The position numbers and the translations under genes were made by a program. The notes under the pieces were generated by a model, which saw nothing but the letters and a program-made list of their open reading frames with translations, had not been told where the DNA came from and made no database searches. Shown one piece after another: positions 5,669 through 27,520 of a stretch of DNA of 32,000 nt. The stretch covers positions 60,001 to 92,000 of the forward strand of contig SHMX01000001.1 of NCBI GenBank assembly GCA_008080745.1. The letters are read 5' to 3'. Every line of letters begins with the position of its first letter. Position 1 is the stretch's first letter. Source of the DNA: Candidatus Thorarchaeota archaeon (GTDB lineage Archaea; Asgardarchaeota; Thorarchaeia; Thorarchaeales; Thorarchaeaceae).

Positions 5669-5971
5669 ATGTCAGAGCTAAAATGTTGCAAAAAATGTGG
5701 TGCGTATCTAACTTGTGATCATAAGGGCGAATGCTGTATAGAATGTCAATATTTCGACCCCATTGATAGAACATGTCTTGCAGTACATCGTAAGAAGGTC
5801 AAGAAGCCCAACAGCTCTGATGAGGAAGATGAATTTGAGTTAGAAGAGGAAGTCGATCCAGACACCTTTCTTTTCGAAGATGATGACCTTGACGAGGAGG
5901 AAGATGACTTCCTTGATGAGGAAGATGAAGATGAGGATGATATCTTCGAGTTAGATGATGAAGATTGGTAA
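5669..5971 (+). CDS. Small Cys-rich (putative Zn-binding) protein with a long acidic C-terminal tail
   Basis: Eight Cys in the first 36 aa (CCxxC, C, CCxxC, C), then a basic patch RKKVKK, then an Asp/Glu-dominated tail ending DDEDW. Divergent from gltX and followed by a hairpin. Confidence 0.8.
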   Translation: MSELKCCKKCGAYLTCDHKGECCIECQYFDPIDRTCLAVHRKKVKKPNSSDEEDEFELEEEVDPDTFLFEDDDLDEEEDDFLDEEDEDEDDIFELDDEDW

Positions 5972-6000
5972 TGTCATTTACCGTTCAGATTAAAGTGAAA

Positions 6001-6034
6001 TACAGAAGATGCATCAGTTGATACATCTTCTGTA
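6001..6034. terminator. Stem-loop between convergent genes, probably a bidirectional terminator or 3'-end stabilising hairpin
   Basis: TACAGAAGATG (6001-6011) pairs with CATCTTCTGTA (6024-6034). After one mismatch the stem continues (ATC/GAT) and closes a 4-nt AGTT loop. Confidence 0.65.
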
Positions 6035-6061
6035 CAAGTACACGATAACCAGATAATTATT

Positions 6062-6844
6062 TCATGTGGGAGCTGGCAGATTATAGAAATACAAACCGAG
6101 TAGAGCTAATGCCAACATAACCAAAAGTGTAGCATTTCCTACTAACCATCCTCGAGCTCTTTTCTTTGAGATGTAAATAGGTCCTAGTCGTTTTAATCCA
6201 GTGGGTGCTTGATCAGTTGGATTAGCAGCCCGCCAGAGAATCTCCAAAGGACTAGCATCACTGGGAAATATATCCAAGTAGAGATGGGACGCATAACCAA
6301 TTAGAAATAGAGCAGCAATGTAATATTCAATGTGTGCTCCAACACTAAATGTAGTTGAAGTAGCTATGTTTATAGCTGCATTTAGAACAGTAGTCATTAC
6401 GATAATAAATGGCAATAGAAATGAGTGAAATATGACATTTCTATGACGGGATATTCCCAGAAGAGGAATGTCCCAATCAGGCATAAGTGCTCCCACTACA
6501 GTCATCAAAGCACCCATGAAAATGGATATGTTACCCACGATAGGAACACCAGAGATCCATTGATAGATTATTGTCCCCCCTAAAGAACCAAAACAGAAAG
6601 CGATGAAAGTCATTGCTCCCACAGCACCACGATTGCTTGTTGTCCGAGCACGCATACCCTTGTGGGGTGCCTTATAGTATAGAACAGGCACCAGTAAAGT
6701 AGCAACTATCCCACCCGCTAAGAAATAAGAGAGCATATCAAGAAGGGTGCCGAAGTCAGATTGCCAAACACTAAATGCGTATATCAACGAATAAATTGCA
6801 AAGAACAATGAGAAAGCAAAGAGCATATGAGAAAGTTTGTTCAT
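6062..6844 (-). CDS. Membrane-bound metal-dependent hydrolase (YdjM/DUF457-like)
   Basis: Multiple hydrophobic segments plus the family motifs N-terminal SH, GALMPDWD, RHRNVIFHS and GYASHLYLD. Confidence 0.82.
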   Translation of the reverse strand: MNKLSHMLFAFSLFFAIYSLIYAFSVWQSDFGTLLDMLSYFLAGGIVATLLVPVLYYKAPHKGMRARTTSNRGAVGAMTFIAFCFGSLGGTIIYQWISGVPIVGNISIFMGALMTVVGALMPDWDIPLLGISRHRNVIFHSFLLPFIIVMTTVLNAAINIATSTTFSVGAHIEYYIAALFLIGYASHLYLDIFPSDASPLEILWRAANPTDQAPTGLKRLGPIYISKKRARGWLVGNATLLVMLALALLGLYFYNLPAPT

Positions 6845-6909
6845 AAATTGTCATTCCCCTGATGTTGGTGCTTTACACCAAACTAGAAAATTAGATGCAT
6901 TAGAGGACT

Positions 6910-9255
6910 TTATTTCTTTCCCCGAAGTCCTGGAAACCAGTAAATTGTGGACCGAGCATAGCTCTTCTGAAGCTTAGCCACCCCTTTTGAAACCAACAAA
7001 TCGAAAGTATTTCTTGCTCGTTCTTCGGTCCATTTGAGATGAACCACAACATCTTCTATTGTGAGCTTTCCATTCTTTTTTGCGGCAAGACCCAATAAAT
7101 CACGAGGATCATGAGTCAGTGCAACTGGAATGAATTGCACAACTCTTGTGCCTTCTTCAAGGGTGGTCAATCCATCAACCAAGCCTTCCTTCGACATTGA
7201 TGATAGAATATCTTCAACCTCGTCGGTATTTGTGTTCCAACCCAATTCATCCAGCCGTATCAATAATTCTGAGAACAACATGATTCCACCAAAATGCCGC
7301 GATTCATCAGCTATACGAAGAATATCCCTTTGCATTCCATCTATCCGATCATCACGTTTCAATAATCTTCTAACCATACCCTTTTTGCTCAGAGCTTCAG
7401 AAATCCAGGATTCGGGGTCATATCCCAACTCACTCAATAGCTCAACCAGTGCGCTTCGGTAAGCTGGAATCGAAAGTAACATCTCTCCTTGTTTCTCAAA
7501 AATTTCTAGTAGCTTTGTTCGAATCCCTTCAATTCGTTCAGCTTTAGCTACTAATTGATCAAGTGAGTGATCCAGTCGGTCTTCCCTGCTAAGTTCTGAA
7601 AGTACAACAGGAATAACGACATTACTTGTTGATTTTATAGTAAATTCAAGAGTCTTCTCTTGATAACCCGCTGCGCTAATCGCTCCTTCATAATGGCTCA
7701 TCGGTAGAGAGAGTTGAATTCCACCCCTTCTATCAGATTCCATAGTAAGAGCGCCAAGCTCGAGCACTGCAGCTTCAATTGCTTTGCCAGATTCGTCACA
7801 AATGTGGAATTTGACCTTACAAAGCTCATCGGATTCAGCAGTAATCGCGCCTTCAGTAACGTACTGCTCGAGGGGGGAGATTTCAGGGAAGCGACTAAGA
7901 ATATCATCCAAATCAGATAGTCTTGATTCTTTTACGAGCCCATCAGCTAAAAGTGATTTTCCCCCCTCACGAATAAGCCTTCGAGTGTGTGCTAGTGAGA
8001 GGATATTGTTCTCTTTCGCATGATAACGAATGGACTTTCGTAATCCGATATCCCCAGATATCCTTGTTTCAATCATATCAAGAAGAATGCGATAATAATC
8101 TGAAGCCGGAAATAGGGGATAAACAAAATCCTTTCTCAGACCCACACGTTCATCACTGTTTTTCAAACGAGACGGAGGATAAATAACCAAATGCATTTGC
8201 CCCTTCTTTGAATAACCAACTGCATAGAATGGTAACATGAAATACACACCAGTAGTAGGTATGTCACTACTGCTTGTAGAAATAAGCACATGATCAAATG
8301 AGGTACGAGTATTTTGAAGATGTTTAAGGACCTGTGTAGCCAAATCTGTGAAAGTCTCAATCTTCGAGGAAATATTTCTTGAAACTTCTTTGAGTTCCTT
8401 CATCATCGAATCGCGTCGAGCGAGGTCTCGTTCCAGGGCCTTTTTTCGAGCATTGCGGGTCCTTTTTAGTTGGTCTGTGTCACCAATACCAGAGGTCAGT
8501 TTGGATTCGACCCCTTCAATCTCTCGTTGTAAGATGTCAATCCTTTGATTCAAACGTTCAATTATTGGTAGGTATTGTTCCTCCAACCGTGAAAGTAGTA
8601 CCTGATATCTATTTTCCAAAGTCTGTAATATATCTTGGATATGTGACTGTGCAGAATCAACAAGTGTAAGTGTATTGCTAATCTTATCACTATATGATTG
8701 GAGTGTGTTCTGATCGAGAACCGAAGGAAAAGCGAAAGCATACCGTTCTGGTTTGGAGTGATAAGGCCAGTCCAACTGAGTTGAAATGGCTTCTGCAACT
8801 TTTCCAGATACAAGTCCTGGAAAATCAATAGGCTCTGAACTCATGATCGATTGAAATTCTATTTGAATAGAATTAATAGTTTCAGAGAGAGCATCAATTG
8901 TTAGCGCGCGATTCATGGACGTCTTGAAAGCCTTAAAGTCAACTGATGGATATACTGGTATTGACGTAGCAGAAATCCCTATTTGTTCAATCAATGTAAA
9001 ACAGTTCGCTGTCGGAGATTTTATTACAAAAACTGGTAGATACAGTTTAATGAAGAACTCCAAATCCATGCCATTTCGGTCATCAATTGCATTTAGAAGA
9101 ATAGAAGATAGGACATAGTCTTCAGGAACTGCTTGTTCCATTATAGATCCTCCAGCAAGCTGTAAACTTTTTGCGGCTGATACAGGAACTATGTAGTCGA
9201 AAGTTTCGGAGTCCATATGAATGCCCATCTTGAAATATGGTGGAATGCTTTTCAT
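6910..9255 (-). CDS. Multidomain protein: unknown N-terminal domain with coiled-coil insert + carboxypeptidase-regulatory-like/PEGA beta-sandwich + C-terminal ESCRT-II Vps22/SNF8 (EAP30/Vps36 family) tandem winged helix
   Basis: The C-terminus (about 6913-7590), VQFIPVALTHDPRDLLGLAAKKNGKLTIEDVVVHLKWTEERARNTFDLLVSKG...YWFPGL, follows the SNF8 pattern (VPxEL..D...LxLA...GxVT..E....LxWxxERA..xLxxL...G...YWxP). The beta-sandwich CKVKFHICDESGKAIEAA...SDRRG...ISAAGYQE spans about 7594-7821. A heptad-rich stretch spans about 8300-8700. Confidence 0.8.
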   Translation of the reverse strand: MKSIPPYFKMGIHMDSETFDYIVPVSAAKSLQLAGGSIMEQAVPEDYVLSSILLNAIDDRNGMDLEFFIKLYLPVFVIKSPTANCFTLIEQIGISATSIPVYPSVDFKAFKTSMNRALTIDALSETINSIQIEFQSIMSSEPIDFPGLVSGKVAEAISTQLDWPYHSKPERYAFAFPSVLDQNTLQSYSDKISNTLTLVDSAQSHIQDILQTLENRYQVLLSRLEEQYLPIIERLNQRIDILQREIEGVESKLTSGIGDTDQLKRTRNARKKALERDLARRDSMMKELKEVSRNISSKIETFTDLATQVLKHLQNTRTSFDHVLISTSSSDIPTTGVYFMLPFYAVGYSKKGQMHLVIYPPSRLKNSDERVGLRKDFVYPLFPASDYYRILLDMIETRISGDIGLRKSIRYHAKENNILSLAHTRRLIREGGKSLLADGLVKESRLSDLDDILSRFPEISPLEQYVTEGAITAESDELCKVKFHICDESGKAIEAAVLELGALTMESDRRGGIQLSLPMSHYEGAISAAGYQEKTLEFTIKSTSNVVIPVVLSELSREDRLDHSLDQLVAKAERIEGIRTKLLEIFEKQGEMLLSIPAYRSALVELLSELGYDPESWISEALSKKGMVRRLLKRDDRIDGMQRDILRIADESRHFGGIMLFSELLIRLDELGWNTNTDEVEDILSSMSKEGLVDGLTTLEEGTRVVQFIPVALTHDPRDLLGLAAKKNGKLTIEDVVVHLKWTEERARNTFDLLVSKGVAKLQKSYARSTIYWFPGLRGKK

Positions 9256-16050: not shown

Positions 16051-16848
16051 ATGAGGACTACAAGAACGATTCTAAGCAATTTAGCCAAAGGGAAAATCAG
16101 TGAAGAAGAGGCAGAAAAACAGTTACAGGAGCTATCTGTCGGAGTTGTTGGTGATCTTGCAAGAATTGATGGTGCTCGGGAAGGTAGAAGTGGAATACCA
16201 GAGGTGATATTCTCAGAATCAAAAAGTGCCGATGATACCGTCCAGATAGCTAAAACTATGATAGTCCAGTCGGGTTATGCACTTATGACTCGGATAAACA
16301 CAGAGAAGTTGCAGACTCTTCAGAGAGATTTATCAGATTACGAAATTGAAGCAAAAGGGTCAGGAAACCACTACACAGTTTTAGCTAGCTCACCAGACTG
16401 GTCCCCACCCGAACCTACAGGAAAAATTGCGGTGGTGACTGCAGGAACCTCAGATATCCCATTTGCATATGAGTCGATTTTAGTAGCTAAAATTATGGGT
16501 GTTACTGCTATATCCTTCTTTGACGTTGGAGTGGCAGGGATACACCGATTGGTGGAACCCATTAAACAGATTGTGAAGGAAAAAGTATCAGCAGTTGTTG
16601 TATTAGCAGGAATGGAGGGTGCATTACCAACAGTTGTTGCATCTCTAGTGAATGCACCTGTCATTGGAGTGCCAATTCCGACAGGATATGGTCATGGTGG
16701 AAAAGGAGAAACTGCTCTCGCATCCATGCTACAATCCTGTGCTCCAGGACTGGCGGTCGTAAATATCGGGAATGGGCTTGGCGCAGGTTCATTTGCGGCC
16801 TTAATTGCTAAAAGATGCGGTAAGATACAACCTGACTCAGGACGATAG
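16051..16848 (+). CDS. larB: Nickel-pincer cofactor biosynthesis protein LarB / NCAIR mutase (PurE)-related protein
   Basis: ARIDxxRxxRxGIPEVIF, VVTAGTSD, DVGVAGIHRL, AGMEGALP, VIGVPxxxGYG, LQSCAPG, VVNIxNGxGA. The true start is ATG 16051; the 15733 extension is antisense to another gene. Confidence 0.88.
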   Translation: MRTTRTILSNLAKGKISEEEAEKQLQELSVGVVGDLARIDGAREGRSGIPEVIFSESKSADDTVQIAKTMIVQSGYALMTRINTEKLQTLQRDLSDYEIEAKGSGNHYTVLASSPDWSPPEPTGKIAVVTAGTSDIPFAYESILVAKIMGVTAISFFDVGVAGIHRLVEPIKQIVKEKVSAVVVLAGMEGALPTVVASLVNAPVIGVPIPTGYGHGGKGETALASMLQSCAPGLAVVNIGNGLGAGSFAALIAKRCGKIQPDSGR

Positions 16849-17970
16849 AATAGTATTTGCAATATCAAGATACACATCTACGGACTGATACATTTGATCA
16901 AGACGGATGAATTCATCTGGTTGGTGTGCTTGTTCAATGGAACCAGGACCACAAATAACATTGATGATACCGACTTTTGGTTGAAGTACTGAACAGTCAG
17001 TTCCATAGGTAGCAGCAGAGGGCTCTGGTCTTCTTCCCGTGACTTTTTCTACGGCATCAAGAGTTGCTCCTACAATGGGACTATCAACGGGTGTTGAAAC
17101 TGCAGGTTTTCCATGTATATACTGAAGATCTACAAAATCAGCTAGGCCTGCTTCAATGAATCTCTCACGAATCTGTTGCATTAACCCTTCTGTTGTTTGT
17201 CCCTTAACAATTCGCATATCAAGATGAACCTCGCAATGATCAGGAACAACATTAATTTTGATACCTCCGTTTATCATACCAACATTTAGAGTAGGAACAC
17301 CAAGTAAATTATCTTCTTCAAAAGGAAATGCTTTACGAGTTATGCTTGCAAGTGCTTTGACAGCTAGGGCAATCGCATTAATCCCCTCTTCAGGTCTTGA
17401 GCCGTGAGCAGACTTGCCTTGTGCGACTATTTTAGACCAAAACATTCCTTTTTCTCCAACAAGAACATCAAGACCAGTAGGTTCAGCACAAACGCCATAT
17501 TTTACGTCAGATAGCAATCCACTTTTTGCAACTTCTTCTGCTCCAGAACAGCCACTCTCCTCATCGGAGGTAGCGAGCATCATAAGAGGCACTTTTCTTT
17601 TTGATTCCTTATAGAGTATCATTGTTTCAGTAAGAGCGGTTACAGGACCTTTCATGTCACAGGTTCCTCTACCATACATTTTACCTCCATCAATCGCTCC
17701 AGCAAAAGGAGGATAGGTCCAGTTTTCCTTCGGCCCAGCTGGAACCGTATCCATGTGCCCATGAATCACAAGAGGTCCCACTTCATCCTCATGAGTTGAA
17801 AAAATGAGGTTAGGCCGTTCGGATGGACCAACAGATCTACAATTAATCCCATAATCCTCCAAATGTCGTTTCAAGACCTTTGCTACTTCTTCTTCTCGAC
17901 CGGGAGGGCTCTCAGAATTTGTTTGCACCAGAGTCTTGAGAAGAGTCATCATTCGCTTTTGATCGGTCAT
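16837..17970 (-). CDS. M20 family metallopeptidase/deacylase (ArgE/DapE/LysK-like)
   Basis: HGHMDTV, YGRGTCDMKG, DEESG, EPT, GKSAHGS, GIKINVVPD, AHQPDE. Its 3' end overlaps convergent larB by 12 bp. Confidence 0.92.
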   Translation of the reverse strand: MTDQKRMMTLLKTLVQTNSESPPGREEEVAKVLKRHLEDYGINCRSVGPSERPNLIFSTHEDEVGPLVIHGHMDTVPAGPKENWTYPPFAGAIDGGKMYGRGTCDMKGPVTALTETMILYKESKRKVPLMMLATSDEESGCSGAEEVAKSGLLSDVKYGVCAEPTGLDVLVGEKGMFWSKIVAQGKSAHGSRPEEGINAIALAVKALASITRKAFPFEEDNLLGVPTLNVGMINGGIKINVVPDHCEVHLDMRIVKGQTTEGLMQQIRERFIEAGLADFVDLQYIHGKPAVSTPVDSPIVGATLDAVEKVTGRRPEPSAATYGTDCSVLQPKVGIINVICGPGSIEQAHQPDEFIRLDQMYQSVDVYLDIANTILSS

Positions 17971-18881: not shown

Positions 18882-20357
18882 TCAAGGACGATACGCAAAG
18901 GGGTGTCTAGCAGACTCCTTTCTGAGTTTTACTTCAGAGATACCTTCTCTCCTCTCAATTGCTCGTCTAATTGCAAAACGGACAGCACGGAAGTTGTTTA
19001 TATGTACCCTTTTTGGATTCACAGCATTTGGATGAACAAATACATTTGCTGCAATCACTATGTCCTTGAGAAGTTCTTCAGGAAGAATATGATCTGTGAC
19101 TGTACGATTCACTGCATCAACAACAGCTTGTTGGGCAACGTTGTAGACCATATCTTTGTGTTTCTCGTGAGTAATGGTCACAGTGGGCGCAAATATTGTA
19201 AGTGGTTCAAGGCCGCTGATAATATTTGAACTGTGATATCCTTCTACAGTTTTCCCAGCATTCTCTACTGCTGTTTTGAGTGGCCCGTCTCGTAAACCCA
19301 AGACAAGATCAACATGTGCTACCTCTTGCCCCCCACCACATAAAGCCTCTCCGTGAAGGAATTCAAGACCAGTAATGGTTTCTGGAACCATTCCATGAGC
19401 CTTCGGATAACTTTCTGCAACAAGGATATTGTCACCCTTCTGGAATTTCACAGGACCCCGTTTTATCAGAAGAAGATCTTCCAGACAAGTACGGATTTCG
19501 TCAATATCATCATAAGAAGGTACATCACCTATCAGCAGAGGTTGTCTTGGCGCTCCTACAGTAATTCCCATCATATTGAGGGCAGCTTTGACAATAGCAC
19601 CTCCACCGCGATTAACAATCAATCTCACAGTCTTCTGAATGCTTCTTTGAATAATGAGAGCCTCATTAAGATCGCCTTGAGCTAATTGTGCTTGCATTTT
19701 GATATAGCGGTCAGGAAAAATGTTCGCACTTGCCAGAATAGCACCATCGCACCCGGTAGCAAATGCAGGTAGGGCAACTTCATCATGACCAATTACAACT
19801 TGGAATTCCTCTGGTCTTCGAACAAGAATAGTTGTCAGGTTTACTAAATTACCACTGGAGTCTTTCATTCCAATGATTCCATCCACCTCTCTTAATCCAT
19901 CAATAAGCTTCCAATCCAGCATTACACCCGTTACCTGAGGAATATTATAGAGGAATATTGGCAATTCACAGGCTCGAGCTATCTTCTCATAATGCTCAAA
20001 AATCTCCTTATTCGTAGGTTTGAGGAAATAGGGAGAAACTACTAGAGCTGCATCTGCACCAAATTCAGCCGCACGATGGGTGATTTTAATCGCGTCGTTT
20101 GTGTAGGCAGCTCCAGTCCCTGCTAAAACAGGTACTCGTCCTTTTGCAGCATCACAAGCAATTTTGATTGCCTCAACTTTTTCTTCAAAACGCATACTCG
20201 TGAATTCACCAGTTGTGCCACAAGGCACAATTCCAGTCGCACCTGCTTTAATTACGTAATCAATAAGCGCACGATATTGATCCTCATTAACACCATCCTC
20301 ATCAAAGGGGGTTACAAGTGCTGGGAAAACACCTTTGAATTTAAAATCCTTTGCCAT
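18882..20357 (-). CDS. DapA-family class I aldolase fused to a formaldehyde-activating enzyme (Fae) domain, paralog B
   Basis: PALVTPF, CGTTGEF, LYNIP, GMKDSS (Schiff-base Lys). C-terminal GEALCGGGQEVAHVDL...VFVHP...NNFRAVRFAIRRA aligns with Fae (GEALVGDGNEVAHIDL...VFIHW...YNYEATKLSIQRA). ATG 20357 follows GGAGGT. Confidence 0.88.
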   Translation of the reverse strand: MAKDFKFKGVFPALVTPFDEDGVNEDQYRALIDYVIKAGATGIVPCGTTGEFTSMRFEEKVEAIKIACDAAKGRVPVLAGTGAAYTNDAIKITHRAAEFGADAALVVSPYFLKPTNKEIFEHYEKIARACELPIFLYNIPQVTGVMLDWKLIDGLREVDGIIGMKDSSGNLVNLTTILVRRPEEFQVVIGHDEVALPAFATGCDGAILASANIFPDRYIKMQAQLAQGDLNEALIIQRSIQKTVRLIVNRGGGAIVKAALNMMGITVGAPRQPLLIGDVPSYDDIDEIRTCLEDLLLIKRGPVKFQKGDNILVAESYPKAHGMVPETITGLEFLHGEALCGGGQEVAHVDLVLGLRDGPLKTAVENAGKTVEGYHSSNIISGLEPLTIFAPTVTITHEKHKDMVYNVAQQAVVDAVNRTVTDHILPEELLKDIVIAANVFVHPNAVNPKRVHINNFRAVRFAIRRAIERREGISEVKLRKESARHPFAYRP

Positions 20358-20362
20358 TGAAT

Positions 20363-21763
20363 TTACCTCCATATCTCTCCTAGAGCTACAGAAACAGCTT
20401 CTTCTGCTGCATGAGTTATCGCTCTTCGATCCCGAGAGTTAAGGTCGACATCCATAGCCATAATCATCACGTATTTCTCAATTTTTTCTTCAGGAATCTT
20501 GTTTGACTTCAATAATTCTGAAACCGCCTTTGCCGCTCCAGACTGAACAGGTCCATAGAATAAGGAGGCTTGACGCATTGAACGAATCTGTCTCATGGGT
20601 AGCATCAAGCTGCTTGGCCGTACTCGGAGATTGGGTTCAAGAATAATCGATAATGCCTCATAACCAATCTTTGGAGTGGTTAGCAGTCTGACAAATACTT
20701 CTCCTAGAGGACCGTCAGCTAGACCAGAAATCACGCTTGCGGATACAATATCGTTTGCACCATTACCAATACCCATATCGCCCAACGAATCCTTAGCAAC
20801 ACCATAATCTGATACGAGGTCTCTCATATCAACCGCTTTTACTAAATCTGGATGTTGCAGGGGTTTAATGAGTTTCAGTTTCTCAAGTTCAATCCGAACT
20901 TCTTCTCGAAGTTCACGGGTAAGAGTACCACCAGTATTTAGTGGCATTCGATCCCGCCCAGCATTGATACCCATCATCCTCAAAGCTGCCTTTGCAGGTG
21001 GGGCACCGCCATTTCGAGTGATAATTCTTGAAAGAGTTTGAACAGAATGCTGTAATTGCATTGCCTCGTCAAATTTCCCTTTTTTGACCTTATCCATGAT
21101 ATCCAACCAGATGTGGGGGATAACATTTGCCGATGCAAGAATAGCTGCACTGGCTCCTGCGGCGATGGCGGATAAGAAGCACTCATCATGACCAATCAAT
21201 ACAGGAATCTTATTTTTGACCTTTTCAATTAGATCCAGTGTATGGGGAATGTTTCCACTACTGTCTTTTATTCCCACAACATTATCAACTTCAACAAGAT
21301 CCTCAACAAGTGAGCTATTAAGAACACCCAAGGTACATTGTGGAATGTTGTAGAGAATAATGGGAAGATCACTCTTTCTAGCTACGGTCTCATAATGTTC
21401 ATAGTAGCCTTTGTCAGAGGGACGCAAATAGAAGGGAGAAATGACCAGGGCTGCATCACATCCAATGTCTGCAGCAAATTTCGTCAGCGCAACTGTTGCC
21501 TTGGTACTATTTTGTCCAGTTCCTGCAACTATGGGAACTCTGCCATCAACGAATTCCACTGCAAGTTTTAGCAGTTTCTTTCGTTCTTCAGTTCGCATGT
21601 AGACGAATTCACCAGTTGTTCCAGCTGGAACAACACCTGTCGCACCATTTTCAATGGTGTAATCGATTACTTCTCTGAAACCTTCTTCCATGATGTCGCC
21701 GTCTTTGGTGAAAGGTGTCACCAGTGCGGGCATCACTCCTTTAGGAATGAATTTCTTTGACAT
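20363..21763 (-). CDS. DapA-family class I aldolase fused to a Fae-like domain, paralog A
   Basis: PALVTPF, AGTTGEF, PFY, LYNIP, GIKDSS. C-terminal GPLGEVF...EPNLRVRPSSLM...RQASLFYGPVQSGAAKAV aligns with Fae (PNLPCKPNTLM...RQAVQMFGPAQHGVAMAV). Confidence 0.88.
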   Translation of the reverse strand: MSKKFIPKGVMPALVTPFTKDGDIMEEGFREVIDYTIENGATGVVPAGTTGEFVYMRTEERKKLLKLAVEFVDGRVPIVAGTGQNSTKATVALTKFAADIGCDAALVISPFYLRPSDKGYYEHYETVARKSDLPIILYNIPQCTLGVLNSSLVEDLVEVDNVVGIKDSSGNIPHTLDLIEKVKNKIPVLIGHDECFLSAIAAGASAAILASANVIPHIWLDIMDKVKKGKFDEAMQLQHSVQTLSRIITRNGGAPPAKAALRMMGINAGRDRMPLNTGGTLTRELREEVRIELEKLKLIKPLQHPDLVKAVDMRDLVSDYGVAKDSLGDMGIGNGANDIVSASVISGLADGPLGEVFVRLLTTPKIGYEALSIILEPNLRVRPSSLMLPMRQIRSMRQASLFYGPVQSGAAKAVSELLKSNKIPEEKIEKYVMIMAMDVDLNSRDRRAITHAAEEAVSVALGEIWR

Positions 21764-21832
21764 GGGAATCAGCCAGCAATACCATCGAGCTTACCTCTTG
21801 CATATAAATCCAGCCCACTATACAGTTACAAC

Positions 21833-22177: not shown

Positions 22178-24643
22178 TTAAGCAAAATCGACTCTACGTG
22201 CTGCATAAACAAGTGACTCGTTGAAGTATTTACCAATAAGTTTTGCAATTACTGGTCCCACAATATAGTTAATGTCACCAGGCATCATGGCAGAGATGTT
22301 GGTTTTTCTAGAGAGTTTGCCCTTTCTTCTCAACGCGTTAATCTCTCTTCGTATAATATTTCGTGCTTCTTCGAGGGTCATAGGTGTAGCAGTTGGTCCA
22401 ATTAAGCCATCTTTGATATCGGATATCGCACGTTGAACAAACACTGAAAGGTTGTCAATATCATCAGCATTAACCATGTGTGCTTTGCCATGGGTTTCAC
22501 AATCACCCTCTTTGGGTGTACTGCCACAAATACGACAGAAGGGTCTTCCGCGATGCATCTTAACATAATATGCCAAAAGGTTAGCACATTTTGCATCATC
22601 TGTTGCGGTCCATTCAAGACCTTTCGTACCGACTCGTCCTATAGCTCTGAACACGGTGTGACTTTTCGTATATATCCAAATAAGTGGACTGAGAGAGGCT
22701 CGTTTTCGTTCAGCAATAAGCTCTTCTTCGATTTTTGCCTGAACTGCAGCCTCTTCTTTTTCCATCTTCTTAACCCGTTCTCGTTTAAGGAATCGTTGCA
22801 TCACATCAAATGCAATAGTATAGTTGTCAAATTCTAATTTATCGACATTCAATGGTTTATCAATGACCCCTGTGAAAAGTGGACTTGGAGTAGTACGTAA
22901 TAGTTTATCAGCATGTTCCATATCACGGTTTGATAACCTAGCATGGAACCATGCAGATATTGATGCAGCATGAAGGTGTGGATGGACTGTCTTCATCTCG
23001 TATATTCTCTCCTGAGTCAAGTCGATTAGAATCTCCTCACGAAGGTTCTGTAGATGAGTATCCGCATCCTCATAGATGCTCTTCAGTAACGCCTTTGTTC
23101 TTAGAAGATCTTGCTTTGAACGATGATAAGTTTCTACAACCCTTACAACTGGTGTAAGTGTTGGAATTATCGCATACCATGCTAAATCATCACGTAAAGC
23201 TACCATGGTTTCGCTCTGAATTCTCTGATGACTCATATCTGATGCAGAACTAACACCCATGGACTTTAGAGCTCCACTTTTTACTAATTCTCTTGCTTCC
23301 AAGAGTTTCTTTACTTCATCTGGAGGGGGAACACGCATCTTCTTCTTGAGAGCTTCTAAGACGGGAACCTCCATTCCAAGTAAGCTTTTTCGATCTTTGG
23401 TAAGAAATGTGATGTCAATCTTATCTAACTCAGAGGCTCGAAGTCCCCTTGCTTTTAGCATACCCTTAACAGGTTTCTCAAGAGTCTGCTCTAATTTATC
23501 AATGGTTTTAAGAGATCTTTCAAGACGTTCTAATTCTTCCTTAGTGAAAGCTGGAGCTTCAGGCTGTCCTTCGGGTTTAATCTCCGTTTCTGCGCCAACA
23601 TCCTTAGAAGCTTGTAATAGGCCCGCAACCAGTTCTTCTACTGAACGTATTCCTTTACGTCCTAGAGTGGATTGGGAAGTACCAGGAGGGGTATTAGTGT
23701 AATAATCCAGAATGTCAAATGCAATTTGTGAGTACTCTTGTAGAACCTGTGCGAATCTCTCTGCGACAAATGCTCCCAATTCAGATTCAAGTTTTTCAAT
23801 TGTATAGGATTCTTTCAATTTGCTCTCAATAAAATCTAGGATTTCAATCCGAAGTGCATGAACAGTCTTTGCAATGTTTGTTTCTATTGTACCTTTACAC
23901 AAGTTGTCAATAACCGTGTCAACAATGTGTTTCCAAGCCTCTGAATTTATCGCAGAAGGCGTTATTGTACTTCGAAGATATGTTGTTTCTCCAATAATCT
24001 GTTCAATTCCCCGTTTCAATACGGATATTTCTACAATTTCTTGATCGTGAGGACGGGTGAGTTCATCAATTAGAGAAAGTGAGCTTTCCTTCAGACCTGA
24101 AGCCTTGATGTATAATTCTTCACGCCATTTATCCGCCCATCCTGTAATTGCATTGAGAAAGTCAACTCTACAGTTAGGAGAATACTCGCTCGGTATGTTC
24201 GTGAGATATTCTTTGATGAGATCAGATACTCTACTACGAGCTGTATCATCTGTCGATGCAGTAGTGTAATCATTACAAAAGGTAATCACAAATTCACTGA
24301 TAGTTTTGAGAGTATGGAGACCCTCATTGTATCGTTTGTCTAACACAAGCTTAATCTCTTCCCGGAGAAGAGTCTGTTCATCCTTTGCGACCTTTTCTTT
24401 CTCTTCTGCAGGAACATCTCCTGATTCCTCATAGCTGATTACAATAGTACCCTGATATGTATGAAGATAAAAAGCTGCGAATTCACGTATGAGATCTTCA
24501 AGGAATACCGCACCATCAAGTCTTCGTTTGAATAATTGACGGTCTCGGGAGCTCCGCATATGGGTTACCAAGGCCTCACCAAGAAAAATCTCTTTTCCAG
24601 CCTCACTCATCTGACGGGTCTTGACTAACCAATTGCTAGACAT
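22178..24643 (-). CDS. Large hypothetical alpha-helical protein (821 aa) with a C-terminal CxxC..CxxH Zn-binding motif
   Basis: Uninterrupted 2.4-kb ORF containing CRICG...CETHG near the C-terminus. Its ATG abuts the upstream stop (TAAATG) and follows GAGGAGG. Confidence 0.8.
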   Translation of the reverse strand: MSSNWLVKTRQMSEAGKEIFLGEALVTHMRSSRDRQLFKRRLDGAVFLEDLIREFAAFYLHTYQGTIVISYEESGDVPAEEKEKVAKDEQTLLREEIKLVLDKRYNEGLHTLKTISEFVITFCNDYTTASTDDTARSRVSDLIKEYLTNIPSEYSPNCRVDFLNAITGWADKWREELYIKASGLKESSLSLIDELTRPHDQEIVEISVLKRGIEQIIGETTYLRSTITPSAINSEAWKHIVDTVIDNLCKGTIETNIAKTVHALRIEILDFIESKLKESYTIEKLESELGAFVAERFAQVLQEYSQIAFDILDYYTNTPPGTSQSTLGRKGIRSVEELVAGLLQASKDVGAETEIKPEGQPEAPAFTKEELERLERSLKTIDKLEQTLEKPVKGMLKARGLRASELDKIDITFLTKDRKSLLGMEVPVLEALKKKMRVPPPDEVKKLLEARELVKSGALKSMGVSSASDMSHQRIQSETMVALRDDLAWYAIIPTLTPVVRVVETYHRSKQDLLRTKALLKSIYEDADTHLQNLREEILIDLTQERIYEMKTVHPHLHAASISAWFHARLSNRDMEHADKLLRTTPSPLFTGVIDKPLNVDKLEFDNYTIAFDVMQRFLKRERVKKMEKEEAAVQAKIEEELIAERKRASLSPLIWIYTKSHTVFRAIGRVGTKGLEWTATDDAKCANLLAYYVKMHRGRPFCRICGSTPKEGDCETHGKAHMVNADDIDNLSVFVQRAISDIKDGLIGPTATPMTLEEARNIIRREINALRRKGKLSRKTNISAMMPGDINYIVGPVIAKLIGKYFNESLVYAARRVDFA

Positions 24644-27397
24644 TTAGTTCTCCTCCTCCATCCTGAGATAGTTATTCCCAATCGTTACAGTCAATTCACA
24701 ATCTTCAATCTCGTAAGTGACTAGGTAAATCAATCCAGGGACCTTGGGATCTCTTAGATATGCCCGAGTTGGTCTTGGTAACAGACGTCCTAATCCCCGC
24801 ATAACAGAATTCATCATGAATTCTAGAAATTCTTCACCAATACTGATGTTGATGCCCTTTGTTGCGTCAGTTCCCTCTGCTGCTAGTTTTTCCAACCGTT
24901 CAGCAAACAAAGACTCCATTTTGTCCTGATGCGTGTCCATCTTCAAGAGCTTCTCATTGAGTAAATCTCGAAGATCGACATAAAGTAACATCTCTTCTGA
25001 AGGTTCTGGCTTCTCTGGAACAGGGTGTTCCGCCTTCAATGGATAATCCTCCTCTATTGCTCTGAGTCTTGGCTCCAATGGGGGAGGCTCTACGGGTTTG
25101 GTTGTGGGTCCAGTTGGCTCAGTAGGTTTTGGAGGGGGTGGAGGAGGTACTTCTACTGTAGGATCAGTCTGTGATTTTTCAACAGCCTTGTCATACTTTC
25201 GTTTCGCCTCTTCGTACTGTGCTGATTTCCATTTGTAATCTTCATGTGCTTTTTTGTATTCTGATTCTTCTTTATCGAATTTTTCTACCTGTGCATGATA
25301 TGCCTTCATTTCTAAATTATATCGGGCACGAGTATCAGCGAGTAGTTCTTGTCTCCGAGCATTATGCTCTCGAATTGGTTTGTTAAGTGCTTCAATTCGG
25401 TCACATTCTGCTTGCCAAGCGTCGACTTTAGTTTGGTATTCCTGTTCTCGAATGGTAGCCTCGTACTCAACTTTGCCAGCAATAGTACGTGCAGTTACAC
25501 CCTCTCCAACCTTGTTATGTACGAAGCGTTGGAGGTCCATCAATTTCGTGGAGAGAGGGGTGGCTTCATCAAATTGAGAATCTAAGGTTGCAATCCATCT
25601 TTTTGCCTCTTCAATCCATTCTTCTGGTTTTTCCTCTTGAGCATCAAGAATTATCCTTAATTCCTGAATTAGCTTGGCATCCTCATTGCGTATCTTGGAT
25701 ATTATTCTCCGAATCAATGGTTTGGAGAGAAGTGTATCCGCGATATCGGGGATGATATCAGCTACCAGATTTTCGAATTTTATAAGTAAAGCATCTAACT
25801 TTTGTCCCCAATCAGATAGTTTGACCTCATCAGCAGATGAATCCTCAGCATGGGTAAGAATAATTTCTGCACGTGTGATGTTAGCTATATCTGCAAATTT
25901 TATCAGAGACCAAATGTCAATTTCTTTGAAGGCATTAGACATGTCACGAGCAATGATTTGCATTAAAGTTCCGAAGTCATCTTCACGAGAACCCTCGAAC
26001 GCCTTCCTGTCAAATACCGCATTTAATTGGAGATATAATTCACTGTAGAATTTTTCGAACAACATTACATCCATTTCATCAGTTGTGTTTCCTGTGTTCT
26101 CTGAACGGAATTCCTGCATAGCCGCAAAGAAGACTTTCCTAGCAGCAGTTACAACAATATACTGTCCAAGTTCTTCAGCAAAGTATTGAGAAACACGTTT
26201 ACAATAAGCCAAGAAGTAACGGAATACACTCTTTAATTGCCAAGCACGTATTTGCCCAATGATGGGCATTTCGCGCTTTCCGGATTCCACAATCTCCTCA
26301 GCTAGTCCTTTAGCAAAATCCTTCTCGATACCCTCAAGACGATGTCCATTCAGACGGATATCTTCAAGCAATGTTTCTAGATGTTTATCCAAAGTGAGTT
26401 GTTTTCCAGAGGTGATATGAGCCTCGACTATTTCAGAAAATACTTCAACGGCGTTTACCAAGTGCTCAACAAAATCCGACGCCTTAGATCTCAAGTCAGA
26501 TAACTCGTCTACAGTCACTACTCCTGTTCCGATATATTTGCTCAGAGATTCTATTGCAGTTCGAGCGATATCAACCTCTTCAGCACTATATGCATAGGTG
26601 TTAACTTCAGCAAGTATTGCACGTCCAATTTCTGGAACTTTATGAGCTAGAGTATGTATTGCTGTTGGAGTAAGAATTCTATGTCTGAAATGGTTAACAA
26701 TAAGATCTTCAGAGCCCTCCGGAAGAAGTAATTCGTGGCTTAGTCTTTTTATGATTTTAGGTCCTGGGGGTAACATTGTGAAATCATCACTATAACTCAA
26801 CTTGATAATTGCCTCGTTATCCACATGTTCTGGCTTTAGTACTAAAGAATCCCAAGAACCTTGGAACTGTCGATCCATCATCTGGACATAGATTACATTA
26901 TTGAAACGATCATTGAATCTCCGTAAGACAGTAAGCCCATCAGTGTCATAACTGACATCATTTTCAACAATGGCTTGTTCGATGTCAGAGATTTTTTTCG
27001 CAAGCTTTTTCATGTGGTCGTCAATTTTGAAGGGATCAACAACACCCTTTTCCCAGCTCAATACACAGACATGTGCACCAACACCTTCAGATTGACCACC
27101 AGAGATAATGAGTTCCTCAGGTAAAACATCCGGTCCAGGTACTTGGTCCAACTCCCACTCAACTGAGAGAAGTTCTAGTCCTTCAGAGTTGAGGACACCA
27201 TCTCGAATAAGGAATATTAGTGGAGTTATATTCAAGGCAACAGTATCTGAATTTTGTTGCATCATGCTTCCAGACCCAATGGCACTACCCAATGGGAATC
27301 CTTGACTTGTTGTAGATCCCAGAACAGATGCTGATGCCATTCGAATTGCTTCCACAGTGCTCGGTGTCTGAATTTTACTTTTTTCAGCTCGCGCCAT
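24644..27397 (-). CDS. Large hypothetical protein (about 917 aa) with a coiled-coil and proline-rich insert
   Basis: Uninterrupted ORF; ATG 27397 follows GGAGG. Charged heptads at about 25170-25470 are followed by VPPPPPPKPTEPTGPTTKPVEPPPLEP (about 25070-25155). Confidence 0.8.
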   Translation of the reverse strand: MARAEKSKIQTPSTVEAIRMASASVLGSTTSQGFPLGSAIGSGSMMQQNSDTVALNITPLIFLIRDGVLNSEGLELLSVEWELDQVPGPDVLPEELIISGGQSEGVGAHVCVLSWEKGVVDPFKIDDHMKKLAKKISDIEQAIVENDVSYDTDGLTVLRRFNDRFNNVIYVQMMDRQFQGSWDSLVLKPEHVDNEAIIKLSYSDDFTMLPPGPKIIKRLSHELLLPEGSEDLIVNHFRHRILTPTAIHTLAHKVPEIGRAILAEVNTYAYSAEEVDIARTAIESLSKYIGTGVVTVDELSDLRSKASDFVEHLVNAVEVFSEIVEAHITSGKQLTLDKHLETLLEDIRLNGHRLEGIEKDFAKGLAEEIVESGKREMPIIGQIRAWQLKSVFRYFLAYCKRVSQYFAEELGQYIVVTAARKVFFAAMQEFRSENTGNTTDEMDVMLFEKFYSELYLQLNAVFDRKAFEGSREDDFGTLMQIIARDMSNAFKEIDIWSLIKFADIANITRAEIILTHAEDSSADEVKLSDWGQKLDALLIKFENLVADIIPDIADTLLSKPLIRRIISKIRNEDAKLIQELRIILDAQEEKPEEWIEEAKRWIATLDSQFDEATPLSTKLMDLQRFVHNKVGEGVTARTIAGKVEYEATIREQEYQTKVDAWQAECDRIEALNKPIREHNARRQELLADTRARYNLEMKAYHAQVEKFDKEESEYKKAHEDYKWKSAQYEEAKRKYDKAVEKSQTDPTVEVPPPPPPKPTEPTGPTTKPVEPPPLEPRLRAIEEDYPLKAEHPVPEKPEPSEEMLLYVDLRDLLNEKLLKMDTHQDKMESLFAERLEKLAAEGTDATKGINISIGEEFLEFMMNSVMRGLGRLLPRPTRAYLRDPKVPGLIYLVTYEIEDCELTVTIGNNYLRMEEEN

Positions 27398-27520
27398 ATT
27401 CAAGCCTCCAATGTAAGGAGTATTCATCTATATTCTAAGGGAGCGGCAATTTCACATGAATTGGTCCCAGACTGACATATTGGAGACCTGTCTTTTGAAC
27501 TTAGCTGGGTCGAACTTGAA

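Follow-up and report, generated by a model that had tools for sequence, protein, structure and literature searches.

Two adjacent genes on the minus strand of a 32,000-nucleotide stretch of a Candidatus Thorarchaeota genome (contig SHMX01000001.1, positions 60,001 to 92,000; the whole stretch is called the window, and positions are given in its numbering) encode two paralogous proteins, A and B. In each protein, an aldolase barrel of the dihydrodipicolinate synthase (DHDPS) family is fused to a C-terminal domain related to formaldehyde-activating enzyme (Fae). Through their Fae-like domains, A and B most likely work as a heteromer, so that the pair most likely forms one two-subunit enzyme. The wider explanation, in which this heteromer has a composite Fae site, a catalytic barrel in A, a scaffold barrel in B and aldol chemistry coupled to one-carbon (C1) metabolism, is favored with moderate confidence. 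The host genome is a 3.16-Mb, 98%-complete metagenome-assembled Asgard genome whose near relatives carry the Thorarchaeota label. The window DNA was listed in two DNA sequencing runs, both marine-sediment metagenomes and probably its source; no RNA run was among those listed.

Complementary Motifs in the Fae-Like Domains

The two-domain architecture of both proteins was clear from Pfam. The DHDPS family PF00701 was matched by A (E 5e-77) and B (E 5e-72), and the Fae family PF08714 was matched at 83.7 bits (E 2e-23) and 100.6 bits (E 1e-28), respectively, against a cut-off of 27. A and B were 37% identical across about 450 residues. The residue equivalences in the Fae-like domains were fixed by aligning the domain of B to the solved Fae of Methylobacterium extorquens (1y5y) through GEAL, EVAHxDL, VFxH and HPFA. 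The Fae-like domain of A keeps EPNLRVRPSSLMLP, ILEPNL, the P..LM segment and FYGPVQSG, and is without His22 and Asp24 (DIVSASV), the His of VFxH (MDVDL instead) and the C-terminal RHPF arm. The domain of B keeps HGEAL, EVAHVDL with His22 and Asp24, VFVHP and the ARHPFAY arm; its PNL loop is deleted and its FGPxQ segment is degenerate (YNVAQ). Hence, the full set of Fae motifs was found in neither chain. Both proteins scored below the cut-off of the Fae model TIGR03126 (118.05), with values of 77 for A and 112.4 for B. The motifs quoted in the initial annotation for A (SPFYLRP, DIVSASV, no VFxH His) and for B (SPYFLKP, VAHVDL, VFVHP) were all confirmed by translation. Its statement that the PNL..P..LM and FGPxQ segments are kept in A and degenerate in B was borne out by translation and by the orthologue columns.

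The orthologue columns were taken from 120 A-type and 110 B-type clusters at 90% identity, drawn from a collection of 5.8 billion proteins. The His22 column was Ser or Thr in A and His in 109 of the 110 B clusters. The Asp24 column was Gly or Ser in A and Asp in 109 of 110 B clusters, and the VFxH His column was Asp or Asn in A and His in B (110/110). ILEPNL and FYGPVQSG were essentially invariant in the A clusters and deleted or degenerate in B, and the C-terminal SARHPFAY arm was absent from the A clusters and present in B. Both Fae-like domains hold invariant residues (84 A-type and 83 B-type sequences). E376, P377, L379, P383, R397, G404 and Q407 of A were invariant across all 84 sequences, distant ones included. 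This conservation indicates that purifying selection acts on both Fae-like domains and that the A/B motif pattern is not due to chance.

Distribution of Gene Pairs and Single-Gene Fusions

The family was scanned with one genome per species, and 80 loci were classified motif by motif. In approximately 44 loci, one unpaired DapA-Fae gene encodes the complete set of Fae motifs (EVAHIDL, EPNLxVKP, YGPAQ, VFVHP and xKHPF) and always Tyr107. These loci belong mostly to Bathyarchaeia, with additional ones in Atabeyarchaeia and LC30, and their products are 44–48% identical to the window proteins. Tandem pairs were found in Thorarchaeota, one Bathyarchaeia lineage, Thermoplasmata, Chloroflexota/Anaerolineae and Thermodesulfobacteriota. 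Gene A, which lies upstream, keeps EPNL and YGPxQ and is without the arm in every one of the 37 pairs. The downstream gene B keeps the His/Asp residues, VFVHP and the arm in all 37 pairs, with the EPNL loop deleted. Metagenome contigs with more divergent pair members showed the identical pattern, and a Methanomassiliicoccales contig ends just past the start of a second gene. An alignment of orthologous pairs had been suggested as a check on the asymmetry of both domains: the complementarity of the Fae-like domains held in 37/37 pairs from at least five phyla, and the asymmetry at Tyr107, considered below, was not conserved outside Thorarchaeota.

The His22 position of A is never His in Thorarchaeota; in the non-Thorarchaeota pairs, it is His in four and Gln or Gly in five. 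According to these sequences, the His face of A decays stepwise, and the losses of the A arm and the B loop are universal. A maximum likelihood tree of 62 proteins placed the A proteins in one clan (Shimodaira–Hasegawa-like approximate likelihood ratio test 99) and the B proteins in another (95); the single-gene forms fell between the two clans. The two subtrees are mirror images, and the Thorarchaeota stems are of equal length (0.95 and 0.94). The tree fits one old duplication, after which the pair was inherited or transferred as a unit. The single gene with a complete Fae domain is the ancestral-type form.

The arrangement of the two genes was conserved along with the motifs. The order of A followed by B was constant across the pairs. 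Of 35 pairs, 34 had the stop codon of A and the ATG of B at most 16 nucleotides apart, most often 5 nucleotides. In the window, the stop codon of A is TAA (20365-20363). The true start of B is likely the ATG at 20357, which gives 491 residues and lies 5 nucleotides past the A stop. This start was chosen because a GGAGG motif in the end of A precedes the ATG at 20357, and because the database gene calls also have 491 residues. The junction TGGAGGT(A/G)A is repeated across the Thorarchaeota pairs. This layout indicates that the A and B genes are translationally coupled.

Modelled Interface Between the Fae-Like Domains

In the Fae homopentamer, both faces are present on each chain, and the tetrahydromethanopterin (H4MPT) site lies between adjacent subunits. 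The complex of the two Fae-like domains of A and B was predicted with a separate alignment for each domain. The interface score ipSAE was 0.88 for the A:B model, and the best of three controls had a value of 0.00. Among 80 solved complexes, 58 attain the mark applied to ipSAE, compared with 2 of 110 mismatched pairs. Separate runs shared at least 69% of their contacts, and the predicted local distance difference test (pLDDT) of the partner was at least 82. On A, the modelled interface covers residues 349–384, including EPNL (377–380). On B, it covers 340–344 (HGEAL), 355–357, 441/443 (before VFVHP) and 466–480 (the arm); segment 355–357 contains Asp355 and adjoins His353. At conserved columns of the A face, the identity to the single-gene consensus was 0.74 for A versus 0.02 for B. 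The corresponding values for the B face were 0.27 for A versus 0.70 for B. These values suggest that each paralogue kept the face used in the model and lost the other, which is supporting evidence and not proof.

The proposal of the initial annotation that the Fae domains of A and B work as an A/B heteromer is therefore upheld by the reciprocal loss in 37 pairs, the mirrored clans, the translational coupling and the modelled faces. Several points weigh against this explanation. The complex model covers the Fae-like domains of A and B alone and cannot rank AB against AA or BB, and its high score may partly stem from resemblance to the solved Fae pentamer. The comparison of interface conservation is based on few columns (8 and 23), with sequences mainly from related Thorarchaeota, and the motif columns were left in the alignment used for the tree. 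The assignment of cleft residues to one subunit or the other depends on the model and on general knowledge of Fae. A keeps His22, with or without Asp24, in four loci (L037, L069, L071 and L109), and so its His face is not uniformly dead. Furthermore, the gene neighbours vary between lineages, and the reaction proposed below for the pair is only inferred; some carriers of the pair are bacteria, and the check for the H4MPT-pathway enzyme Mch covers the host genome.

The same observations were weighed for the possibility that A and B are two independent enzymes with a common operon and pathway. In that case, A would be a homomeric aldolase with a non-catalytic Fae-like module for ligand binding or regulation, and B would be a homomeric Fae with a decaying barrel. 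The presence of all aldolase residues in A and all Fae catalytic residues in B is compatible with this division; operon partners need not bind each other, and a complex prediction can pass on family likeness alone. However, an oligomer of B only would be without the EPNL loop at each interface, though the single-gene forms keep this loop strictly. The EPNL and GPxQ segments of A are invariant across phyla in a chain without its own catalytic His, which is hard to explain unless they face the His of B. Moreover, the reciprocal pattern matches the two sides of the modelled interface, and no examined locus with room for both genes carries only one of them. Independence of the two proteins is hence unlikely.

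Aldolase Barrels and the Tyr107 Position

The barrel of A has GTTGE, the equivalent of Tyr107 (SPFYLRP), Tyr133 (LYNIPQCT) and the Schiff-base Lys (GIKDS). The barrel of B has GTTGE, Tyr133 and the Lys (GMKDS), with Phe at the Tyr107 position (SPYFLKP). Thr44/45, Tyr133 and Lys161 were conserved in 120/120 of the A orthologue clusters (Thorarchaeota). The aldolase residues of A were intact in all 37 pairs and likewise in all single-gene forms examined. In one Thorarchaeota subclade (L038, 6001-7449; L056; L060; P0227-P0230), which accounts for three of the 28 Thorarchaeota pairs, GTTGE of B is replaced by ASLGE, AGTG by AGAC and Lys161 by Ser (GLSDA), with the Fae motifs of B and the partner A intact. 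The simplest reading of these sequences is that the A barrel is a conserved catalytic aldolase and that the B barrel is relaxed.

Both barrels might instead be mainly scaffolds, with the pair serving as the formaldehyde-activating enzyme of the lineage and no coupled aldol reaction. Such a role would fit the lack of another Fae in the family of the host genome and the loss of the B Lys in the subclade. Nevertheless, the complete conservation of Thr44/45, Tyr133 and Lys161 in A, together with the intact residues of the pairs and single-gene forms, argues for a working Schiff-base site and makes a purely structural role of both barrels improbable.

The initial annotation had extended the complementation to both domains, with Tyr107 of A entering the aldolase site of B in trans and the His of B joining the surface of A in the pterin site. 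In DHDPS, Tyr107 is donated in trans across the tight dimer, and the combination of Tyr in A and Phe in B occurs here and in 25 of the 28 Thorarchaeota pairs. The Tyr107 column contains 105 Tyr and 15 Phe in the 120 A clusters, and 109 Phe and one Tyr in the 110 B clusters. However, the other three Thorarchaeota pairs comprise two with Phe/Phe and one with Tyr/Tyr, and the pairs outside Thorarchaeota are mixed or reversed (A/B states Tyr/Tyr in four, Phe/Tyr in three and Phe/Phe in two). Since the aldolase site of B is dead in the subclade described above, its completion is not what the pair exists for. An A–B tight dimer would also deprive the fully conserved site of A of its Tyr. Complementation in both domains is therefore very unlikely, and completion of the B aldolase site by a Tyr of A was not sustained, as the Tyr/Phe asymmetry is confined to Thorarchaeota and the B Lys is lost in one subclade. 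If Tyr107 matters for A, we infer that it would come from an A–A tight dimer.

Another position of the barrel also differed between the protein types. Residue 55 of A (window 20366-21763), the third residue after GTTGE, is Tyr without exception in 84 sequences (GTTGEFxY), distant ones included. The B types have Ser or Asn at this position, and the single-gene forms have Asn. In DHDPS, this position is close to the tight-dimer interface.

Annotation as DapA and Genome Context

The database annotation of both proteins as DapA arises because they pass the cut-off of TIGR00674, the NCBIfam dapA equivalog (225.8 and 232.4 versus 206.15). The closest solved structures are true DHDPS enzymes (2yxg, E 1.5e-53). 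In DHDPS, Arg138 binds the carboxylate of aspartate semialdehyde. The Arg138 position (PSRT/PGRS in solved DHDPS) is occupied by Val in B and Cys in A. Among the loci classified, no family member has this Arg; it is likewise missing from the single-gene fusions (YNIPQCT). No DapB_N match above the cut-off was found in the 98%-complete genome, and homoserine dehydrogenase (Hom) was not found in the genome. A role of A and B as 4-hydroxy-tetrahydrodipicolinate synthase for lysine, with an accessory domain, is thus exceedingly unlikely despite the score and the nearest structures, because Arg138 and DapB are missing and lysine synthesis has no use for an attached Fae domain. On this evidence, it is almost certain that neither barrel is a true DHDPS and that the DapA label is wrong.

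A and B are the sole DHDPS matches and the sole Fae matches in the genome. No Hps match above the cut-off was found anywhere in the genome, and the scores of the two proteins against the Fae-Hps model NF009833 were 60.7 and 91.2 versus a cut-off of 274. Mch, SHMT and PanB are encoded, and the H4MPT C1 pathway is considered present because Mch was found. In a survey of 400 Asgard genomes, Fae in the family of the host was nearly confined to the pair with its two weak matches (78/85 genomes). Most other Asgard families with Fae had a canonical copy in open reading frames of 400–450 residues, consistent with Fae-Hps.

The genome also encodes two ThrC-family proteins above the cut-off and one Asd/ArgC-type protein; no ThrB match above the cut-off was found in it. 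Judging from this gene content, the aspartate-family pathways look incomplete or unconventional. A link of the pair to the homoserine route, with Hom and ThrB absent and ThrC-like genes present, is too indirect to be more than a lead. Replacement of PanB was ruled out for this genome, in which PanB is present.

Proposed Mechanism and Comparison With Known Systems

Following the old duplication suggested by the tree, copy A, upstream, lost the C-terminal arm and, by degrees, the His/Asp face, with the EPNL loop and the GPxQ pocket retained. Copy B, downstream, lost the EPNL loop and retained His22, Asp24, VFVHP and the arm. In the preferred explanation, a heteromer with a composite Fae site, the full site would, as the pterin site of solved Fae lies between neighbouring subunits, be rebuilt only by contact of the His face of B with the EPNL face of A. 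The closed homo-oligomeric Fae ring would thereby be replaced by a directional A:B pair of Fae-like domains. The A barrel would be the catalytic aldolase, and the B barrel would be mainly a scaffold, with Phe107 here and the Lys gone in the subclade.

The chemistry proposed as most likely would link the composite Fae site, with formaldehyde or methylene-H4MPT, to a pyruvate-type Schiff-base aldol step in the A barrel, for example 4-hydroxy-2-oxobutanoate <-> pyruvate + formaldehyde. The choice of 4-hydroxy-2-oxobutanoate or a related 4-hydroxy-2-oxo acid as the substrate is a guess by analogy, made with low confidence. It follows the logic of archaeal Fae-Hps, in which Fae, the enzyme for loading formaldehyde onto H4MPT, is fused to a formaldehyde-producing or formaldehyde-consuming barrel, and the resemblance of the barrels to pyruvate-type class I aldolases. 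The A/B complex could accordingly be an undescribed C1–C3 enzyme of anaerobic archaea, in which the composite Fae site exchanges formaldehyde with (methylene-)H4MPT and passes it to the A barrel; this specific function is tentative and, as it stands, somewhat unlikely. If true, it would be a new junction, for entry or exit, of the H4MPT pathway with central or amino-acid metabolism in a genome without Hom, DapB and Hps. The single-gene forms, which combine a ring-forming Fae with a dimer-forming DHDPS, would then be large symmetric cages that were reduced to a heteromer by duplication. The unusual higher-order assembly that the initial annotation expected of the fusion is a reasonable prediction.

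Fae-Hps of methanogens and other archaea is similar to A and B in combining Fae, on one chain, with an aldolase-type barrel for the production or use of formaldehyde in organisms with the H4MPT pathway. Other Asgard families also carry Fae-Hps where the family of the host has only the A/B pair. In contrast, the barrel of A and B is of the type of DHDPS and N-acetylneuraminate lyase (NAL), with a Schiff-base Lys and pyruvate-type chemistry, and not of the type of Hps and orotidine monophosphate decarboxylase. Their Fae domain is C-terminal instead of N-terminal, and two paralogous chains each contribute a part of the Fae site. The domain of B aligns end to end with M. extorquens Fae (1Y5Y/1Y60; E 2e-19) and shares GEAL, EVAHxDL, VFxH and HPFA, and A keeps the PNL..P..LM and FGPxQ segments of this enzyme. 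Unlike M. extorquens Fae, A and B each hold one face, score below the TIGR03126 cut-off and are fused to a barrel.

A and B share with the DHDPS/NAL class I aldolases the PF00701 barrel, GTTGE, Tyr133 and the Schiff-base Lys. They differ from DHDPS in the lack of Arg138, the lack of a diaminopimelate pathway in the genome, a Tyr107 that is variable in the paired forms and the C-terminal Fae domain. The single-gene DapA-Fae fusions have the same architecture; unlike the pair, they have a complete Fae domain and an invariable Tyr107 in one gene. The trypanosomatid deoxyhypusine synthase DHSc/DHSp heterotetramer and S-adenosylmethionine decarboxylase (AdoMetDC) with its prozyme are heteromers of paralogues that have degenerate half-sites at shared interfaces. 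They are comparable by analogy only: a homo-oligomer with an interface site was duplicated, residues were lost, and the heteromer alone is fully active. However, their folds and chemistry are unrelated to those of A and B, in which one domain shows reciprocal loss and a ring interface would become a directional pair. A published paper on the DapA-Fae fusion was not found by a full-text literature search. The component domains are already known; what is so far undescribed is the family of fusions, along with its wrong annotation and its divided Fae site.

Gene Organization and Neighbouring Genes

The features of the gene pair are listed in Table 1. The range of 18885-21440 given in the initial annotation spans all of B and truncates A, which reaches 21763. 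From its sequence and position, the TTTATAT element is a candidate promoter of the A–B operon.

Table 1. Coordinates of the A–B gene pair and its features in the window.
Feature	Coordinates	Strand	Evidence
Paralog A, 466 residues, DHDPS-family barrel and A-type Fae-like domain	20363..21763	-	Open reading frame, translation, Pfam, 120 orthologue clusters
Paralog B, open reading frame of 496 residues from the first ATG at 20372	18882..20372	-	Open reading frame, translation
Aldolase barrel of A, residues 8-290	20894..21742	-	PF00701
Fae-like domain of A, residues 329-466	20366..20779	-	PF08714 match at residues 335-461
Aldolase barrel of B, residues 11-293 of the 496-residue reading	19494..20342	-	PF00701
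Fae-like domain of B, residues 335-496	18885..19370	-	PF08714
GGAGG Shine-Dalgarno-like motif within the last codons of A (..IWR-stop), 8 nucleotides ahead of the B ATG at 20357	20366..20370	-	Sequence
TTTATAT, TATA-box-like, about 40 nucleotides upstream of the A ATG, in a 69-nucleotide divergent spacer shared with cutA	21802..21808	-	Read from sequence

An M20-family peptidase gene (ArgE/DapE-like; window 16837-17970, minus strand) lies downstream of B on the same strand, and it has the same place in at least 12 of the 28 Thorarchaeota loci. In the Thermoplasmata locus L071, B is followed by an M28 (M28/M20) peptidase gene. The peptidase downstream of B may be functionally linked to the pair. 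Upstream of A, two giant helical proteins are encoded (window 22178-27427, minus strand), which are syntenic with the pair in a divergent Thorarchaeota contig. Their counterparts there (L038:1-4009) are genes of 846+ and 803 codons with no Pfam match. In the Thermodesulfobacteriota locus L112, genes for an IclR regulator and a dehydratase of the enolase superfamily (mandelate racemase/muconate lactonizing enzyme group; 1959-2711 and 5889-7157) flank the pair. This arrangement is typical of operons for acid-sugar catabolism, in which a 2-keto-3-deoxy-acid aldolase is supplied by a dehydratase.

A conserved protein of 430–450 residues is encoded head-to-head with 35 of the Bathyarchaeia single-gene fusions and upstream on the same strand in four loci (L072-L119, L040, L041, L069 and L116 for the protein as a whole). 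It is 66–74% identical from Bathyarchaeia to the host genome. The host copy, with 71% identity, lies outside the window and is unlinked to the pair (G000 C9:46951-48240, equal to L127:6951-8240). The predicted model (pLDDT 84) shows a triose-phosphate isomerase (TIM) barrel preceded by a helical bundle at the N terminus. Many His, Glu and Asp residues of the protein are invariant. The protein had no Pfam match and no Atlas hit, and structural searches gave generic TIM-barrel matches only (Foldseek TM 0.3–0.45; VIA Z 11–13, with many unrelated families). A ThrC-like enzyme of 501 residues, dependent on pyridoxal 5'-phosphate (PALP) and with a C-terminal PadR-type regulator domain, is encoded on the same host contig (L127:4649-6151, minus strand; G000 C9).

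A second conserved protein of 317–335 residues, with no Pfam match, adjoins the DapA-Fae genes in Thermoplasmata, Chloroflexota and Atabeyarchaeia with 61–81% identity (L071:1949-2953, L109:1565-2539, L118:1918-2868, L120:1914-2864, L074 and L098). It was not found in the host genome by tblastn. A weak profile resemblance to the protein of about 435 residues was detected at a probability of 21%, and homology between the two is not claimed.

Biological Significance

These genes are labelled 'DapA' in hundreds of genomes from Asgard, Bathyarchaeia, Thermoplasmata and Chloroflexota. Such labelling distorts the reconstruction of both lysine synthesis and formaldehyde/H4MPT metabolism in sediment archaea. 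In Thorarchaeota, the genome has no Fae domain and no DHDPS-family barrel besides those of the pair. For protein evolution, the pair would represent the conversion of a ring-shaped homo-oligomer with interface sites into an obligate two-gene heteromer by reciprocal loss, with unsplit single-gene relatives still extant for comparison. For biochemistry, the pair points by analogy to a predicted link between a C1 carrier and a 2-oxo acid, which would be assayable with recombinant protein.

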